Assembly: GCA_945861645.1 (NCBI GenBank)
Contig: CAMAVZ010000018.1
Coordinates: 1-37,836, forward strand
Length of the DNA stretch: 37,836 nucleotides
Origin: Opitutus sp. GAS368
Lineage (GTDB): Bacteria > Verrucomicrobiota > Verrucomicrobiia > Opitutales > Opitutaceae
Direction: 5' to 3'
Shown here: piece after piece, positions 21,001 to 27,000 of the stretch
How positions within the stretch are numbered: position 1 is the first letter of the stretch
Layout: every line of letters starts with the position of its first letter
Program-made: the position numbers

Positions 21001-24000
21001 CGCATGCCGTACGGTGTGGGGGTGGCCAACTCGTACGTGGTTTCGACCGGTGGCGATAGTGCTATTCTTTTTGATACCGGGGCGAGTCATCCTGAATTGC
21101 ACCGCGCTTGGCCCACGCGCATTCAGGAAATTGAGGCGGTCTTTATTACCCATTATGAGGCTGAACATATCGGCGGACTCGACGTGGTTTTGCAGGAAAC
21201 CGGCTTGGCGCAGTTCTATGGTCCCCCAACCGGTCGTTGGCCGCGCTGCCACGGATTAGGGGAAGGCGAAACGGTGCAGTTTGAGAAAATTTCGGTTACG
21301 GCTTTCTGCACTCCGGGGCATGCGGCCGAGCATAATTGTTATCTCATCCAAGCGACCACCAAACCGGCCGGAGCGGCACTGTTGATATCCGGTGATCTCG
21401 TTTTTGCCGGTTCGCTCGGGGGCGGCTATTTCTGTTGTCAGCGTCAACTCCAACACGCGCGGCGGATGCTAGATTTATTGGCACCGGATACGGTCATTGC
21501 CCCGGGCCACGGTCCGCTGACCACCGCCGCGAACGAGCGCCGCTTTAACGCTTTCCTGGCTCGCTAGGAACCGGCGTTGAGTGCGGCGGGGCGCACGGGA
21601 ATAGCCCTTTAAGTGCGCCATACTTCCGCGCCAAAGTCCCAGCCGCGGCGCGCGGGTTGGCGAACAATACGCTCCAACCCATCGTGATTGGTGACCCGCA
21701 TATTCGCGGCATCCCATTCAATATCACGGTTGGTGCGTTGCGCCAAGCAGCCGACGAGAGACATTTCAGTGAGGCGAGCGGAGTACTCAAAATTAGAACC
21801 AGGTAGCGGTCCTTCATTTTTGATGGCGCGAACCCATTCTTGGAAAGGTCCGCCCTTGATCCGCGGGATAGTTTTGGCGGGTAGGTTTAATTTAAATTCC
21901 TCCCAAAGTTTATCCGGTAGCAAGCGGGGTGTGTCGGGGCGGGCGCCAGTTATTAACGTGTTTTTATCCCCGATCATGAGCATGCCCGAACTGGGGAATT
22001 TTTTCGTCCGATCCCAATCGAGCGGCGGGGCAGGGTGTTGGCCGCCATCATACCAATGCAAGGCGACCGGCGGTTTGTTGCCGCGAGCGGGGAACTCAAA
22101 TTTAAGATGGGAGGAACGGCAGACGAAACCCTCGGCAATGGGCTCAAGGTTAATCACCGAGACGCGGGTAGGCGCATCCAAATCCAGTGACCAGAAGGGA
22201 GCGTCGAGGGTGTGGCAGGCCCAATCACCGAGTTCGCCGCAGCCAAAATCCCACCAGCCACGCCACGTAAGCGGCGCGTAGGCAGAGCTGTATTTACGTT
22301 TCTTCGCGGGCCCGAGCCAGAGATCCCAATCGAGAGAGGCGGGTGGCGCCAGGGTTGGGGCGGGGAAAGTGGATGGAATGCTGAAATAAGGACCTTTCAC
22401 GAAATTAGGGCCATCAAACCAAGCGTGGACTTCGCGAACTTCGCCGAGCACGCCCGATTCATACCATTCTTTAACGAGGCGAATGCCTTCCGTGGTGTGC
22501 CCTTGATTACCCATTTGGGTGATCACCTGGTAGTAGGCGGCTGCGCGCCGCAGGGTGCGGGCCTGCCAGATATCGTGGGTCAATGGCTTCTGCACATACA
22601 CGTGTTTGCCGAGTTGCATGGCCAAGTAGGCCGCCGCGAAATGACTGTGATCAGGAATGGAGACAATCACGGCATCGATCTCGCGATGCATTTGATCAAA
22701 CATCATTCGATAGTCCTTGAAGCGTTTAGCTTGAGGATATTTGGCCCAATTTTTAGCCGCACGCGCGTCATCGACATCGCAGATCGCGACATAATTTTCA
22801 CCGAGGCATCCATCGAAGGCGACATCGGCAATGCCGCCCCCACCAATAAACGCTAGGTTAAGCTTACGGCTCGCGGTGGGACCGGCTTGAGCGATAGCAA
22901 AACGTGGCAGAACAAAAAGTGACGCCGCCGCGGCGGATGTTTGCAGGAACTGGCGGCGGGATAGGTCGAGGTAGGTCATGGGGTGATCGGGGTGAAACTA
23001 AAATTTATTACCTAACCAGACCTGTTATCTATAAAACGAGCCGCCAACTGATTAAGTCGCCATGGAAAAAATTGAGCGCTAGCGGGATTAAAATCTTCTG
23101 CCCCCTAATTAGGGCAGGAGGGCGTCTCTGGTCAGCGCTTACTCCGGGCGCTTGTATTCTTTATGGCCTTCTTTCTGGAGCGCGGAGATTTTAGTAAGTA
23201 TCTCGACTACGCTTTTATTGTCACCGGCTTTCAGGGCGATTTCCACTTGGTCAAAGCCAACGATTATCTCTTTAATTTTTTTCTTATAACCAGCGATGAA
23301 TTGGTCGCGCTTATCCGCGGGAACATCGCGGGCGAGGTCAGGCGAGTACGAAAGACTTTCCTTGGTGGCAGCTTGGATCAGGCCGAGCAAGGCGAGGGAG
23401 GACGCATTTTGGGCTGGATCCGCAGCCTGCTTGCGCAATTTGCGCCAAGATTTATTGAGCGCATCCATCGATTTTTCGAGGGGCGTCTCCTCTTGCTCTG
23501 GTTTTGCTTTAGGCTCTTCGGCACGGCTGAGAGCCGGGGTGAGCGCGAGAATTAAGGTAAGCAGCGGCCGGAGGATTTTTTTCATATAAAGTGGTTTTAA
23601 ATTAAGCGGCTCTAAATAAAAAAGCCAGCGCAAGTCGCTTATTCTGTGCCTCCTTCTGCCGCCATGTGCGCTTCATCTATACTGGTATCCACGTTCAGCC
23701 CACCCCCCCCGTGCTCCTCGCCCCCCCGTGCCCTGACGCCATCCCTGCCCCCCGGCCATGCTTTGCGACGCTCTGTTTGTAATATATTATATTACAAACA
23801 GAGCGTCTTTTCCGCGTCATCAAACGGGGGGCTTGTATGTTATTTTTAATTAAAAGATTAAAAATCCATGAATTCACTTCGTTTGCCTCGATCTGCTTTA
23901 TTGGCGGGGGATGTGGCGCTCGGCTTGCTTGAAGCGATTGAAGCGACCGCACGCGTCGCTGCGCGCAATTTAAAGAAAACTGGATTGCTGGGCACGCGGA

Positions 24001-27000
24001 AGCCAGTGGGTTCGACCTTACAACCCGGCGCAAAGACGCCCCTTTGGAATGAGCTGGTTAAGCAAACTCTGCCTTGGGTCCAGAAACGCGGCAGCAAGGC
24101 GCGGTTGGCGCGCTTTCTTGGCCTACCGCGCCAGCGTTTACAGGATTGCCTGAAATCGCAACGCGCTTGCCTTGATGCCGAGAGAACGTTGCGCCTGCTC
24201 TGCTGGGTAGCTGCTCGTCAACAAGGGCGAGATTTGATCCTTTGAGGACATTCTATTTGTAATATAATGTATTACAAACAGGCCCCCGTGATTTTTGCGT
24301 TAAGGACCAGTCGGGGGGTGGGGGGGATTTTGGCGCAGGCGATAGGCCGCGGCAAAGAGGGCGAGCATGGCGGTGGGGCTGAGGGAGGAGCCGGGACGTT
24401 CGCACCAGCTGATCGGTCGGGCGATCACGGGCAGACCAGCCGCGCGGGCGCGCAGAAGTAGCTCGAGGTCAAAGGCGAAGCCGGCTTCACGCCACACACT
24501 GGAGGCGTAAAAAGCACGGGGGATAATTTTTAGGCCGCATTGAGTATCGGTAAACTTAAGGCCGAGCCAGAGCTGCACCCAACGATTGAATACGCGGCTC
24601 CCGATTCGGCGGTGCCAAAATCTGGTGACTGATTTATTAGTCGCCGCCGTCCGCACCCCCATAAACACGGCGGGCTGCTGGGCCGCCTGCGCTTGAGCAA
24701 TCAGCGCCGCTACTTCCGCGGCGGGCGTGGCGCCGTCCGCATCGACAAAGGCGAGCCAAGCTGCCTGCGGAGCGGTCGCCCAACCGGTGCGAATCGCATG
24801 TCCTTTACCGCGATTCTGCGGGTAGCTCTGCATGGGCTGAAGCGACGGGTAATCACCGCGCAGCTCAGCAATTTTTGCTGCAAGCCAATGCTGTTCACTC
24901 TCAGGGGAGCCGTCCACGACGACTTGGATGCGCACCTGACCGGCGTTCGCTATAAGAGCGGCGCAGAGCGGCGGCAGAAATTCAATCAGCCGTTTACCGT
25001 CGCGGTAACTGGGAATAACCAGGAGGGTGTCTGCTTGATTCATGCGAAAGGTGCGCCTTGCCGGTAGCTCTGACCTGACGACGTGCAGACCAAACTAGCG
25101 ATGCGCGGATCTTGGGCGGTGAGTTGGGTTAATTGCGAAGCGTTGAGCAAGAGGGCGGCGGTGCTGAGCGCATCAGCGAGGCCGGCGCTTGCAGCCAGTA
25201 CGAGGGCGCGCGCGGCCGGCTGCACTGCGAAGTTTGGGCGCGAGTCGATGATGTGCCCAGGTTGATACTGGAAGCCAGAAGCTCCCAAGCAAAATTTCCC
25301 GTGGAGGGGCAGCACGCTGCGGGGTTCGTCAATTTCTAACGACCAACCGTCGCCGCCGAGCCCGCGCAGACTACTACCGCCAGCAATGAGGCAACCCGTA
25401 GTGATTTCCCATTCCGCGAGTAAAGCCGCCGCTTGATCAAGCGCGTAGCCTTTACCCAGCGCTCCCAGATCTAGCCAGGGCCCGGCCCGCAATTTATGCA
25501 CGCGGCCAAGTTCAGGTTGGAGGCGCACCATCGGCCCAGGTTGATCTCCGGCAATCGGATTCGGGACGTCATGCAAGGAGAGGGGAATTTCCTGACCTTT
25601 AGCCGCGACACTGGCCCGACCAGTGAAGGCATCGAAGGCTCCACCCGTGAGGTGCGCGACTTCTGCCGCCAGAGCCAGACAGGCGAGGGTGTCAGGACTG
25701 ACGGCAACTTCGGTGCCGCGGGCGGCGCGATTTAAACGGGTGACGTCGCTCGATTCGCGATAAAAACTCAGGTTCCCCTCGAGCTGATCGATGAGGGCGA
25801 AGGCCTCCGTCGCGGCTTGGCGTAGATAAATTGGGTCATGACCACCCAAGTGAAATACCCACTCGGTTGCCATGGCTGCATGGGTGCAAGCGGTGAGCCC
25901 GGCGGGCAGTGTTAGCCGAAAATTCATCGCGGCGCGGACCAAAGTAAAATGTCGGGTCGTAGGCCGAAGGCGGTGGCAGCTGCTGGTGGAGGCAGATCGA
26001 GTCGGGAGTCGAGCAGCACCATATCATACGCGGAGAGATTCTGCGGTGGCGTGGTGAAATATCCCACCGTAGCGCGGTCGCGTAGATACCAAGGGAGCGG
26101 CCAGGCATGATCGGGGCTGATCACGGCAATTTTTTTATCGAGCGCTTGAGTTTCTAACGTCGTCACCAGTCTGGTCAGATCGGGCGACGTGGGTTGATAG
26201 AGGTAAGGGCTGCGACTGTCATTAGCGTAGCGGCCAAGTGCGGGGCCTGCGCGCCAAGCGCCCGATAGTACCAGAGCTAAGCCGAAAAAAGCAGGGGTGA
26301 AGCGGCCAATTTTTTCGGGCAGCCAACGGGCAGAATGCGCCGCGCCGAGCCCAGCCAAGAGTGCGAGACCAGCGTAAGGTGTCAGCAAGAGCCACGGGGT
26401 TTTGTAGGGAATTAGGCTATAGATCAGCAGCAGCGTGGCGGTGAACGCCGCCAAGGCGCGATGGGTAGGGTTGGCCTGAGGAGAAAAAGCGAGGATCGCG
26501 CCGCCGAGGGCGCCCAAGAGCAACAGCGGTTCGCCCCAGTAGATGCCGCCCTGCGTGTGGGGCCACAGGATCGCGCCGTAATAGAACCAGGGTTGGTCAT
26601 GAGGACCACCTGAGGCGCGCTCGGCATAATTAAAATAAGCGCGAAGCCCGTCGGTGAGCCCGGCGGAGTGGGTGAAGAATGCTGAATAAAAAATGACATA
26701 AACCACGCTGGCGGCCAGGAAGGCGATCAGCAGTCGGGGGACCAGACGCCCGATTTCGCGCCATGGTCGAACGATGAGCAGGGCGCCGCCAAGTGCGGCG
26801 AAATGCAGGACCGAGGTTTCTTTTGTGGCCTGCATCAGCCCGGCGATTATGCCGACGATCAAGGCGGTGGTGAGGGTGGGGCGATCGATGAAGCGCAGGG
26901 TCGCAAAAAATAAGGCCCAAGTGAAAAAGCTGAACCAAGCTTCTTGTACAAAATAAGTATCATAGATCACCGCCAAAGGTGCGATCGCGAGCAGGGTGGT

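Follow-up and report, generated by a model that had tools for sequence, protein, structure and literature searches.

Bacterial repeat families with a cognate protein are known almost exclusively from the REP/RAYT type, in which the protein is an enzyme that copies the repeat. As described in PMC3733652 and in the abstracts of REPIN papers, such a system consists of a family of short extragenic palindromes and a cognate, usually single-copy gene placed between two inverted copies. Dispersed solo copies and inverted doublets accompany the gene, several gene-plus-repeat families can share a genome, and inheritance is mostly vertical with long persistence. We describe here a locus that shares this layout, this persistence and the splitting into private gene-plus-repeat families, but with a partner predicted to be a plain DNA-binding protein. 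Whereas the RAYT partner is an HUH Y1 transposase, the gene at this locus encodes a 125-aa all-helical HTH protein. The GTAG/CGTC tag of REPs is missing from this genome's palindrome variant, and while REPIN doublets are copied as units with homologous spacers, the doublet spacers seen here are unrelated. A REP/RAYT-like layout with a non-transposase partner had been proposed in the note of a genome-wide survey, and the proposal passed all tests run, the likeness being one of layout only. The present analysis adds a confident fold model, paralogue-specific palindromes, helix-specific covariation, the orthology of all 16 sites, and searches of this genome in which neither a Y1 transposase nor a serine recombinase was found.

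The locus lies in a window of 37,836 nucleotides, the whole stretch of DNA analysed, from Opitutus sp. GAS368 (Opitutaceae, a family of freshwater and soil bacteria). The genome searched comprises 2.30 Mb on 116 contigs and is 84% complete. The features of the locus are as follows.

23767..23807, no strand: upstream palindrome, a 41-bp perfect inverted repeat with 20-nt arms round one central T; its outer arms are GACGCTCTG/CAGAGCGTC
23776-23798, no strand: shared 23-bp core inside the upstream palindrome, an exact match to the core
23763..23790, + strand: sigma-70-like promoter match TTGCGA-16-TATTAT, a consensus match only
23808..23867, + strand: non-coding spacer of 60 nt from palindrome to start codon, AT-rich at its 3' end
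23868..24245, + strand: HTH gene, a conserved ORF with a 125-aa product
24256..24278, no strand: downstream palindrome copy, one mismatch to the core (central ATG for ATA)

In 100 shuffles of the window, the core TTTGTAATATA-W-TATATTACAAA was never matched. The survey had reported the 125-aa ORF, which is present on the + strand, and two perfect palindromes around it; that description applies to the upstream copy, while the downstream copy is imperfect. The latter begins 11 bp past the stop codon and ends 22 bp short of the 3' end of a convergent glycosyltransferase gene. Together, the HTH gene and its two palindromes form a unit of about 510 bp, with the gene alone between them. Two promoter-like matches were found at the locus against 0.6 expected from shuffles, and the 60-nt spacer is probably a 5' leader or promoter-proximal region. 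As the -10 hexamer of the promoter match coincides with the palindrome centre, a bound dimer would cover the -10. As ssDNA, the upstream palindrome has a predicted fold of -20 kcal/mol (z -11.4). An intrinsic terminator was rejected, since no terminator-like site (hairpin plus T run) occurs in 23600-24350, the stem is AT-rich inside, and three sites in this genome lie in divergent gaps.

The protein consists of a long N-terminal helix (residues 8-38), a basic linker (39-57) in which the motif L-[RK]-P-G-x-x-T-P-L-W-N-E-L is conserved, and an HTH domain of four helices (58-118) with a predicted recognition helix at about residues 87-98, PRQRLQDCLKSQ. Fifteen columns are invariant in an alignment of 30 homologues, and the ORF is a real conserved gene. 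The structure model (pLDDT 87.2, pTM 0.61) has the four- to five-helix arrangement with the HTH at helices 2-3 that defines lambda-repressor-like (XRE/Cro/C-protein) domains, and its best structural matches are C.EcoT38IS, C.Esp1396I, C.AhdI and C.BclI. As modelled, the fold is hence lambda-repressor/Cro/C-protein-like. The weak HTH call of the survey's note recurs in Pfam, where this member matches YdaS_toxin (PF15943) with 14.2 bits and an E value of 0.04. Such matches are found at E <= 1 in 22 of 30 family members (best E 6.7e-6), a 387-aa relative, P0150, reaches 28.5 bits, and every match stays below the curated cut-off of 30 bits. By sequence, the family is thus related to YdaS_toxin and not a member of it under the curated rule. 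Among named Atlas clusters, those of phage CII come nearest (score 0.90). None of the 163 relatives detected at sequence level has a Pfam domain, and those that are named at source are called 'hypothetical protein', except for one 'transposase-like protein'. Profile searches of 30 members revealed no catalytic domain in the protein; it carries neither a Y1_Tnp nor a Resolvase domain, and no longer, fused form of it was found.

The structural matches direct attention to the C proteins of R-M systems, whose dimers are described in PMC3351150 as centred on TATA with a compressed minor groove, with helix 3 occupying the major groove to each side and with TG/CA conserved on the flanks. The C-box operators in that account resemble what is predicted here: a dimer on about 19 bp, an AT-rich centre, outer TG/CA and autoregulation. 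The HTH protein differs in its extra N-terminal helix and basic linker, in the absence of restriction or methylase genes or any conserved neighbour, and in its sites, which flank the gene and recur at many further positions in the chromosome. An R-M controller was rejected, as no neighbour gene recurs across 30 loci and the neighbours in this genome are cytochrome b562-like and GT2 genes. Prophage regulators of the Cro/CII/YdaS type are alike in the weak recurrent YdaS match and the CII-like clusters; they differ in that the HTH gene has no phage context or phage-record match and is confined to one bacterial family. Three other candidates were also discarded. A type II antitoxin with HTH (HigA/HipB/MqsA-like) would require a toxin gene, and none is adjacent to this solitary gene. 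For a serine recombinase site system, PF00239 is absent from the protein and was not found in the genome (84% complete); the half-site TGTCYNNTA resembles the resolvase consensus. An insertion sequence or MITE is contradicted by the lack of a transposase domain, conservation that ends at about 35 bp, diverged paralogues, and the lack of a duplication at a replaced site.

The HTH gene was found in 56 of 121 genomes of the family. A second search detected it in 14 of 26 family genomes and in none of 274 from the phylum's other families, and tblastn returned no matches to the protein in a phage set (50,697 records) or a plasmid set, in agreement with the restriction to one family claimed by the survey. 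The median copy number of the strict pattern TGT-N4-TAWTA-N4-ACA is 25 in genomes with the gene (n=56) and 0 in those without (n=65), with 0-2 copies per genome for the reversed-pattern control. This upholds the reported link between gene and palindrome abundance. As the survey also remarked, some gene-less genomes keep sites; five hold 6-9 good palindromes. Distribution of the gene is patchy, with 1-8 copies per genome and stop-bearing pseudogenes in four genomes, and the paralogues are diverged from one another rather than near-identical. The gene has flanking palindromes at 24 of 30 loci. Among the 80 loci of a second set, a palindrome is present upstream in 53, downstream in 57 and on both sides in 47, compared to 3 and 2 in control windows 750-1100 bp away; of the 47 two-sided loci, 44 carry identical half-sites upstream and downstream. 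For 99 unique loci, the median distance from the nearest upstream palindrome centre to the predicted start is 39 bp (47 of 69 at 20-60 bp), and that from the stop to the nearest downstream centre is 34 bp.

Y1_Tnp (PF01797) was not found in this genome (84% complete), as the survey had stated for RAYT, and the locus is excluded from REP/RAYT membership by enzyme; the Resolvase domain (PF00239) was likewise not found. PF01797 occurs in 107 of 121 family genomes irrespective of the HTH gene, and was not found in the site-bearing genomes G026, G059 and G097 (50, 41 and 23 sites, respectively). Classical GTAG REPs and Y1_Tnp genes occur separately in this bacterial family.

The pairing of protein and site is evident within single genomes. 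Genome G383 holds five paralogues beside five different palindrome types, the type being the same on both flanks, and G093 does likewise. The palindrome type of G093 has 9 copies there and none in three other genomes, while that of G383 has 8 copies there and none elsewhere. Over 35 loci, half-site distance correlates with recognition-helix distance (r 0.59, reached in 0 of 5000 permutations), compared to r 0.11 (691 of 5000) for the rest of the domain. With the rest of the domain controlled for, the helix retains a partial correlation of 0.59; the rest of the domain, with the helix controlled for, has one of 0.01. The covariation is hence specific to the predicted recognition helix, in line with the survey's claim that the half-site follows it.

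That the HTH protein and the palindrome form a binding pair is, taken alone, highly probable. The full proposal is evenly balanced in our judgement: a cognate, co-diversifying HTH dimer with a family of putative binding sites, autoregulated and vertically inherited, in a REP/RAYT-like layout without a catalytic partner. The modelled fold, the pairing of protein and palindrome, the covariation with the helix, and the orthologous, conserved sites are results of the analysis; DNA binding, dimerisation and autorepression we infer. A protein of the Cro or R-M controller type would bind the 19-23-bp palindrome, most likely as a dimer, with each recognition helix reading the four variable bases in one half-site. 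Readout of the invariant, AT-rich TAWTA centre may be indirect, through a narrowing of the minor groove like that in C-protein operators. The two bracketing palindromes would be the gene's own sites and, because the upstream one covers the promoter-like match, we propose that the gene represses itself; the -10 at the palindrome centre and the typical upstream distance form the basis for this. The same protein would also bind the other 14 sites. Protein and site may evolve as a matched pair: after gene duplication, copies could drift to new half-sites, each paralogue keeping its own site set and, over long times, multiplying it.

Copies of the core in this genome number 4 exact, 9 at up to one mismatch and 16 at up to two, with none added at 3 or 4. 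The RAYT-style arrangement, a gene flanked by its own inverted repeats with the same repeat dispersed elsewhere, is therefore present. The survey's figure of 16 intergenic sites stands as a count; 14 are fully intergenic and two overlap the final 7 nt of a gene (C3 72781, C74 1387), as judged by our own ORF calls checked with Pfam. The element common to the copies spans about 35 bp including shared outer arms, with nothing kept beyond; the outer arms compensate, and the copies group in sub-families with common compensated arms.

An ordinary autoregulated transcription factor with a small regulon would make the 14 other sites operators of neighbouring genes and paired sites a sign of cooperative binding or looping. 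Such a factor would fit the gene's upstream site at a promoter-like match, conservation of sites at orthologous places above background, site pairs in one gap that are far commoner than chance, and several neighbours from sugar metabolism (PFK, galactokinase, PfkB kinase, UDPGP, GFO/IDH/MocA). However, four of 15 gaps with sites are convergent, three of these being only 55-142 bp long with no promoter room, and in genome G101 six sites are convergent, four tandem, three divergent and two inside ORFs (crude calls, n=15). The remaining neighbours are unrelated housekeeping genes (YidC, DEAD-box helicases, TolC-like, M50 protease, lipoamide dehydrogenase), and the distance from solo sites to the next start codon is 100-360 bp, as against the 39-bp median for the gene's own site. 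Site counts range from 0 to 120 between species, and a private site family accompanies each of up to eight paralogues, a pattern not expected of a conserved regulon. Furthermore, the element of about 35 bp that the copies share, common outer arms included, suggests descent by copying rather than convergence. We consider the regulon unlikely. The positions of the sites, next to unrelated housekeeping genes and in gaps of all three kinds (convergent, divergent, tandem), are in our best reading more readily explained by a domesticated repeat family of protein-bound structural or roadblock sites than by the promoter operators of a regulon.

Small dimeric binders with roughly ten to a hundred dispersed copies of one palindrome, not tied to promoters, are exemplified by KorA/KorB of IncP plasmids, MatP-matS, ParB-parS and Noc. 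In each of these, one conserved gene, either a housekeeping or a plasmid gene, serves a single type of site. The HTH family differs in its up to 8 paralogues with private sites, its patchy occurrence, its pseudogenes and its lack of regional clustering; sites in G101 are dispersed over 0.07-3.09 Mb and beyond.

For each of the 16 sites, an orthologous counterpart exists in one to four sister species. Over 40 orthologous site pairs from four sister species, identity is 888/920 (96.5%) for the core and 443/480 for the outer arms, versus 3243/3988 (81%) for the adjacent intergenic DNA, which bears out the orthology and conservation reported by the survey. At the locus itself, 1-3 of 41 positions of the upstream palindrome differ from the four sister species, compared to 9-49% of the intergenic DNA just upstream. 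The spacer shows 0, 2, 2 and 2 differences in 60 nt, and the downstream palindrome is identical at 23/23 positions in all four. The HTH orthologue is intact at 125 aa in 4/4 species, with residues 48-123 invariant bar position 72. None of the 16 sites is private to this genome, so no site was gained since the split from the sister species and there is no sign of site movement on that time scale. The sites in this lineage are best read as old, inherited vertically and held by selection.

This stasis bears on the idea of a REP/REPIN- or MITE-like family of mobile repeats that would owe its movement either to an enzyme whose gene lies elsewhere or to the host's replication and repair, with the HTH protein as regulator, immunity factor or targeting subunit. 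The RAYT/REP layout of a gene between inverted copies with dispersed solos and inverted doublets would be expected of it, as would the patchy, multicopy gene with its pseudogenes and the sub-families of compensated outer arms. One site was lost or replaced in this genome, with no duplication seen there, and a local 90-bp tandem array differs between two sister species, with 3 copies in the one and 2 in the other. A toxin-antitoxin pair has inserted between two palindrome-plus-flank copies, and the REPIN abstracts describe equally slow, vertically inherited repeat populations. Against this, no site is private despite neighbouring genes that diverge from the sister species by up to pS 0.39. The 17 doublet and triplet regions in four genomes have unrelated spacers of 27-150 bp, the tandem array holding the sole homologous ones, and hence doublets were not copied as units. 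No target duplication and no clean empty site turned up, the protein lacks a catalytic domain, Y1 transposase and serine recombinase were not found here, and Y1_Tnp was not found in genomes with 23-50 sites either. Mobility of this kind is thus improbable.

A very unlikely explanation is that the palindromes are recombination sites for cassette gain and loss (integron attC- or pdif-module-like), with the HTH protein as a cassette or as an accessory specificity factor for a host recombinase. Three segments here lie between two palindromes, namely the HTH gene, a 153-aa ORF (C5) and a vapC/phd-like toxin-antitoxin pair (C24), and the inverted arms enclose a conserved AT-rich centre. Synonymous divergence of the HTH cassette is four-fold below that of its neighbours, with a jump at the left edge of the upstream palindrome. 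Three sister species lack the C24 pair, which is enclosed by a direct repeat of about 44 bp made of palindrome plus flank; since this repeat takes in 21 bp of ordinary flank, ordinary recombination explains it equally well. Variation in the arms follows the enclosed protein rather than any recombinase, the central region spans just 5 bp, and a 5.3-kb insert in two sister species sits 43 bp from a palindrome without a second copy. No serine recombinase was found in this genome, and no inversion or excision joint among the compared contigs. That the palindromes act alone as nucleic-acid hairpins (terminators, mRNA 3' stabilisers or cruciforms), the gene merely riding between two, is scarcely credible: compensating outer arms, the very stable fold, seven of 16 sites within 60 bp of a stop codon and sites that persist without the gene are compatible with it, but it gives no account of the half-site following the recognition helix or of each paralogue's own type on both flanks, a terminator-like site is absent at the locus, three sites lie in divergent gaps, and Rfam yielded only chance microRNA hairpin matches below threshold.

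Returning to the co-diversifying protein and site family, structural sites would turn it into a chromosome-binding system specific to this lineage, with a diversification resembling that of an immunity system; should the sites still be multiplying, copying can do without a dedicated transposase. Tentatively, the non-enzymatic DNA-binding protein and its palindromes might form a self-perpetuating vertical partnership, a REPIN-RAYT counterpart without transposase. Dimer binding to a long, AT-centred palindrome might itself promote rare copying (e.g. fork stalling leading to template switching or break repair) and protect copies from decay. Paralogues might avoid cross-talk by joint shifts of helix and half-site, giving up to eight private protein-site 'species' per genome. 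The matched recognition-helix and half-site pairs, of at least ten types, provide a natural series for learning the recognition code of this HTH class. Among the homologue-bearing records is a cultured carrier, an isolate of Oleiharenicola lentus, which makes a bench test possible.

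The helix-turn-helix (HTH) gene lies between two copies of its palindrome in the genome of Opitutus sp. GAS368 (hereafter G000; an assembly of 2.30 Mb in 116 contigs, 84% complete, 57% G+C), as follows:

23767-23807, upstream palindrome, 41 bp and perfect, with a 23-bp common core at 23776-23798
23868-24245, + strand, HTH gene, a 125-aa ORF
24256-24278, downstream copy of the core, with one mismatch

The genome-wide survey's note described two perfect copies at the gene, a description that holds for the upstream copy only. No core match occurred in 100 shuffles of the window sequence. 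Four exact core copies are present in G000. Allowing one mismatch raises the count to 9 and allowing two raises it to 16, with none added at three or four mismatches; the strict pattern TGT-N4-TAWTA-N4-ACA occurs seven times and its reversed control not at all. The count of 16 intergenic sites was therefore reproduced, with the correction that by our gene calls (ORFs with a Pfam check) two of the 16 run into the final 7 nt of a gene, leaving 14 wholly intergenic. Gene and both palindromes are retained in related strains, as seen in contigs from four sequencing runs, two of DNA and two of RNA. In the same four runs the upstream palindrome is a contig break point, one run has a 41-bp fold-back at the palindrome, and no excision or inversion joint was seen in these contigs. 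RNA contigs span parts of the HTH gene (24015-24187 in X16), coverage that is not proof of transcription. C runs (23700-23735, + strand) and G runs (24310-24330) lie immediately outside the two palindromes, and small insertions at 23699-23704 were found in assembled contigs of two sister strains.

The HTH protein and the palindrome very probably form a cognate DNA-binding pair, a prediction that is the only economical reading of the fold, the two-flank pairing, the private palindrome types of paralogues, the covariation that singles out the helix and the association of gene with sites across the family. In a first set of homologues, 24 of 30 loci are flanked by one or more palindromes built on the same plan. 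A second set of 80 loci, which shares part of its genomes with the first, has a palindrome within 350 bp upstream at 53 loci, downstream at 57 and on both sides at 47, compared with 3 and 2 palindromes in control windows of equal size 750-1100 bp away. Where both flanks carry one, the 9-nt half-sites are identical in 44/47 cases, differ by one base in two and are unrelated in one. Hence both the reported flanking of homologues by palindromes and the agreement of the two flanks are borne out. Among 99 unique loci, the nearest upstream centre has a median position of 39 bp before the predicted start (20-60 bp in 47/69) and the nearest downstream centre lies at a median of 34 bp past the stop. 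A promoter-like match at the upstream site of the window has its -10 element at the palindrome centre, which together with the upstream-site position suggests predicted autorepression of the HTH gene.

The strongest new evidence for pairing comes from paralogues with private palindromes within one genome, compared at 20 loci fetched from four genomes. Palindromes were detectable at 5/8 paralogues in the family member G383, representing five different types, and at 5/6 in G093, all distinct and some entirely without the outer TGT/ACA; the flanks agree wherever both were detected. The G093 type TTGCTTAWTAAGCAA has nine copies in that genome, four flanking two genes and five elsewhere, and none in G000, G383 or G101. 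One G383 type likewise has eight copies at home (two flanking, six elsewhere) and none in the other three genomes. In a further family member, G023, a CACC-type palindrome flanks the only detected gene copy, yet most of its sites are CACG-type, and a gene for that type was not found.

To relate half-site to protein, we used the 38 of 50 loci with a TAWTA-centred palindrome, from which L094 and L095 (unmatched by the domain-cutting motif) and L100 (the same locus as L007) were removed, leaving 35; the half-site of L006 was set by hand. Half-site distance, taken over 7 variable positions, correlates with distance over 12 columns of the predicted recognition helix at r 0.59 (0/5000 permutations as high), compared with r 0.11 for the rest of the domain (691/5000). 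The partial correlation for the helix given the rest is 0.59 (0/5000) and the reverse partial 0.01 (2118/5000). Kin among the 35 loci are not independent, and the contrast between helix and rest controls much of this kinship. The earlier claim that the half-site changes with the predicted recognition helix is thus upheld. The restriction-modification (R-M) controller C.Esp1396I is described as binding in dimers centred on TATA with a compressed minor groove, helix 3 entering the major groove on both sides and TG/CA conserved in the flanks (PMC3351150). From that description, the closest solved relatives bind in the manner expected.

The gene is a genuine one, and the predicted fold of its product is that of an HTH protein. 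An alignment of 30 sequences has 15 invariant columns, clustered in L-[RK]-P-G-x-x-T-P-L-W-N-E-L, G-x-K-x-x-L-A-R-x-L-G-x-P-R-Q-R and P-D-A-E-R-T-L-x-L-L-x-W, and the AlphaFold model built from it is confident (pLDDT 87.2, pTM 0.61), with a long helix at residues 8-38 and four helices at 58-118, joined by a basic linker that is modelled less confidently. The top Foldseek match is the R-M controller C.EcoT38IS at 28% identity and probability 0.98, yet with an E value of 0.38; HipB, HigA, Aca, 434 Cro, SinR and other C-proteins follow. Pfam matches among the 30 members are to YdaS (22/30, best E 6.7e-6), HTH_8 (5) and HTH_3 (4), all below the cut-offs, and a profile search of solved structures reached only a designed HTH_8 peptide at E 0.66. 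No fused longer form scored among 1996 candidates, which is weak evidence, and eight longer representatives contain HTH domains only or no domain. A resolvase-like reading of the protein, as a long helix, an arm and an HTH with a half-site resembling TGTCYNNTA, is without backing from Pfam or the fold matches.

Relatives of the single protein were found in 56 of 121 sampled Opitutaceae genomes, with one to six matches per genome, and a 30-homologue profile finds up to eight gene copies per genome. With this profile the gene is present in 14/26 genomes of the family and in 0/274 from other families of the phylum, and the best 80 loci from the collection of named genomes come without exception from records titled Opitutaceae, Opitutales/Opitutia, Lacunisphaera, Oleiharenicola, Didemnitutus, Opitutus or Verrucomicrobia(ota). 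Searches of the phage and plasmid collections by tblastn gave no match in either. Both the family restriction and the absence from phage and plasmid sets asserted by the genome-wide survey's note are therefore supported. A library of 1.84 billion representatives contains 575 matching clusters at E <= 0.001, of which 148 reach <= 1e-10, and almost all are 110-150 aa long; none of the 120 relatives listed has a precomputed Pfam domain, and their source names read 'hypothetical protein' with one exception, 'transposase-like protein'.

The number of sites follows the gene across the family, as had been claimed from a smaller sample. The 56 genomes with the gene contain a median of 25 copies of the strict pattern (zero in 7) and the 65 without it a median of 0 (zero in 40, five or more in 9); the reversed pattern is present in 0-2 copies per genome. 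At most one strict match was obtained in 10/56 gene-bearing genomes because variants lack the TGT/ACA. Five gene-less genomes keep clearly palindromic sites, in line with what had been reported: G003 has 9, G056 7, G005 6 (6/6 perfect), G074 8 and G076 7. The first two are complete single contigs and the other three 96-97% complete, and the gene was not found in any of them by protein or profile search (E <= 0.1). These genomes count against a strict dependence of sites on the gene.

An exact search for the 21-nt core in a collection of 185,579 species returned 38 stretches, of which 28 fall in six Verrucomicrobia/Opitutia records (10, 6, 5, 4, 2 and 1) while the other 10 occur singly in unrelated taxa. 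Sister species of G000 (G398-G401) account for four of those six records; their flanks are 85-97% identical, and they contain 9, 11, 20 and 13 sites when up to three mismatches are allowed, with none for the reversed control. We analysed 51 of these 53 sites, in 40 loci, leaving out two from G398. Both flanks map round a G000 site for 37/51 and one flank for 4/51, the other being absent or too short; 3/51 belong to one locus, replaced in G000 by ~115 bp of unrelated DNA, and 7/51 do not map to G000. For every G000 site (16/16) one or more sister species have an orthologue, so G000 has no private site. In 40 orthologous pairs, with L234 excluded as the second contig end of a single site, the core is identical at 888/920 positions, the outer arms at 443/480 and the adjacent intergenic sequence within 70 bp at 3243/3988, a comparison that decayed sites would escape given the three-mismatch limit. 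This repeats in kind the better conservation of core than flanks put forward earlier (224/230 versus 469/700). The site orthology and conservation argue against an actively hopping element in the G000 lineage.

An intact 125-aa orthologue is present in all four sister species, with residues 48-123 invariant save position 72, replacements in the N-terminal part and a pN/pS of 0.13-0.75 (small counts). Comparing window positions 23634-24299 with L243, L254, L261 and L270, we found that synonymous divergence in the segment from palindrome to palindrome is up to four-fold below that of neighbouring genes. For G398, G399, G400 and G401, respectively, it is 0.020, 0.066, 0.046 and 0.086 in the HTH gene and 0.063, 0.072, 0.172 and 0.387 in the adjoining glycosyltransferase; values for a cytochrome b562-like gene are 0.065, 0.081 and 0.403. 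This change sets in at the upstream palindrome's left edge: divergence is 9-49% in the gap left of the palindrome and 0-3.3% over the 60 non-coding bp right of it. The low divergence reflects either constraint at the nucleotide level or exchange between species more recent than that of the surroundings. DNA synteny could not be followed into same-genus representatives (G043, G091, G338 and G383), which are so diverged that the HTH gene alone matched, at 67-75%, and no insertion ends were readable between G101 and G056, also of one genus, where the doublet-bearing gap is unalignable.

Site placement does not look like that of promoter operators. Of the gaps holding sites in G000, 4 are convergent, 3 divergent and 7 tandem (8 sites), and a further one lies at the end of a contig; a stop codon lies within 60 bp of seven sites. 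Among the first 15 sites of G101, crude ORF calls place 6 in convergent, 4 in tandem and 3 in divergent gaps, and 2 within ORFs. Neighbours in G000 are unrelated housekeeping genes: lipoamide dehydrogenase, PFK, galactokinase, 3-keto-disaccharide hydrolase, HD protein, PfkB kinase, TauE, methyltransferase, YidC, AAA ATPase, UDPGP, two DEAD-box helicases, ADH, aminotransferase, DUF885, GFO/IDH/MocA enzyme, TolC-like protein, HGLS and M50 protease. This dispersed placement argues against a classical regulon. Clustering in one chromosome region, as for matS or parS, was rejected since sites are spread along the complete chromosomes of G023 and G101.

Conservation among G000 copies stops about six bases outside the core (gctcgg-core-ccgagc, ~35 bp), with no common sequence beyond. 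The outer arms are self-complementary yet different between copies: over the first six outward positions 70/96 arm pairs are complementary, where shuffles average 50 and reach 68 at most (0/2000 reach 70), in agreement with the arm covariation proposed before. In other genomes the two palindromes of one gene can have mutually unrelated, self-complementary outer arms of 17-19 bp. Dimer binding leaves this self-complementarity unexplained. Selection for a hairpin or cruciform is a possible source; quasi-palindromes also tend to be perfected by template switching, which is a possible alternative. Rfam gave only sub-threshold matches to microRNA hairpins. Site pairs 46-170 bp apart are common, and in G101 6/6 have the same inverted arrangement with unrelated spacers. 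A true tandem repeat of 90-bp period, each unit one palindrome plus a homologous 67-bp spacer, has three units in G401 (L253 701-903) and two in G400 (L245 701-813), in a region that does not map to the G000 assembly.

The swings in site number between species, the sub-families and the private types argue that sites multiply over long times, as has been reported for REPIN populations, which the system resembles in this respect. Taken with the placement and the orthology and conservation of sites, this leads to a reading to which we give an even chance, namely a domesticated, vertically inherited protein-plus-site family whose dispersed sites would be kept as protein-bound structural or roadblock sites. 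The closest known systems are REP/RAYT in layout and R-M controller proteins in protein and operator, and the HTH-palindrome system does not show the defining features of either. Word searches of open-access text gave no description of a repeat family with a co-diversifying cognate HTH partner. Protein-dependent copying, if true, would make this a new kind of system.

The stated absence of a RAYT was confirmed in so far as a Pfam Y1_Tnp search of the 84% complete G000 had no match; the domain was also not found in G026, G059 or G097, which hold 50, 41 and 23 strict sites. Y1_Tnp is present in 107/121 family genomes, mostly N-terminal in frames of ~310-390 aa and often in several copies, with three in tandem, 836 bp apart, in G096. 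These frames represent another repeat or transposase system in the family, distinct from the HTH-palindrome one. Classical GTAG REPs are described as abundant in O. terrae (PMC3733652), and therefore a true REP/RAYT exists beside the HTH-palindrome system in the family.

No Resolvase domain was found in G000, nor a recurrent neighbour gene among 30 loci. A 5.3-kb segment in G400 (L276 701-6005) and G401 (L278 621-5950), missing from G000, lies 43 bp from the palindrome at 72781 of contig C3 and has no second palindrome copy; therefore synteny breaks near palindromes are not counted as evidence for cassettes. Three G000 segments are enclosed by a palindrome on each side: the HTH gene, a pair on contig C24 and a 153-aa ORF on contig C5. 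The C24 pair (L273, G000:C24:5400-6600, about 133-1076) encodes a VapC-like PIN protein of 142 aa and a Phd/YefM-like protein of 84 aa, and is missing from three sister species. On either side of the pair stands a direct repeat of ~44 bp that comprises the palindrome and 21 bp of right flank; its right-hand copy is degenerate. The repeat fits insertion by recombination at or beside the palindrome; ordinary short-homology recombination explains it equally well. The C5 ORF (L074, G000:C5:72920-76586, about 1048-1509) is without a Pfam match, has a low third-position G+C of 0.48 and carries near its 5' end eight head-to-tail 9-bp units, read as a VAA repeat.
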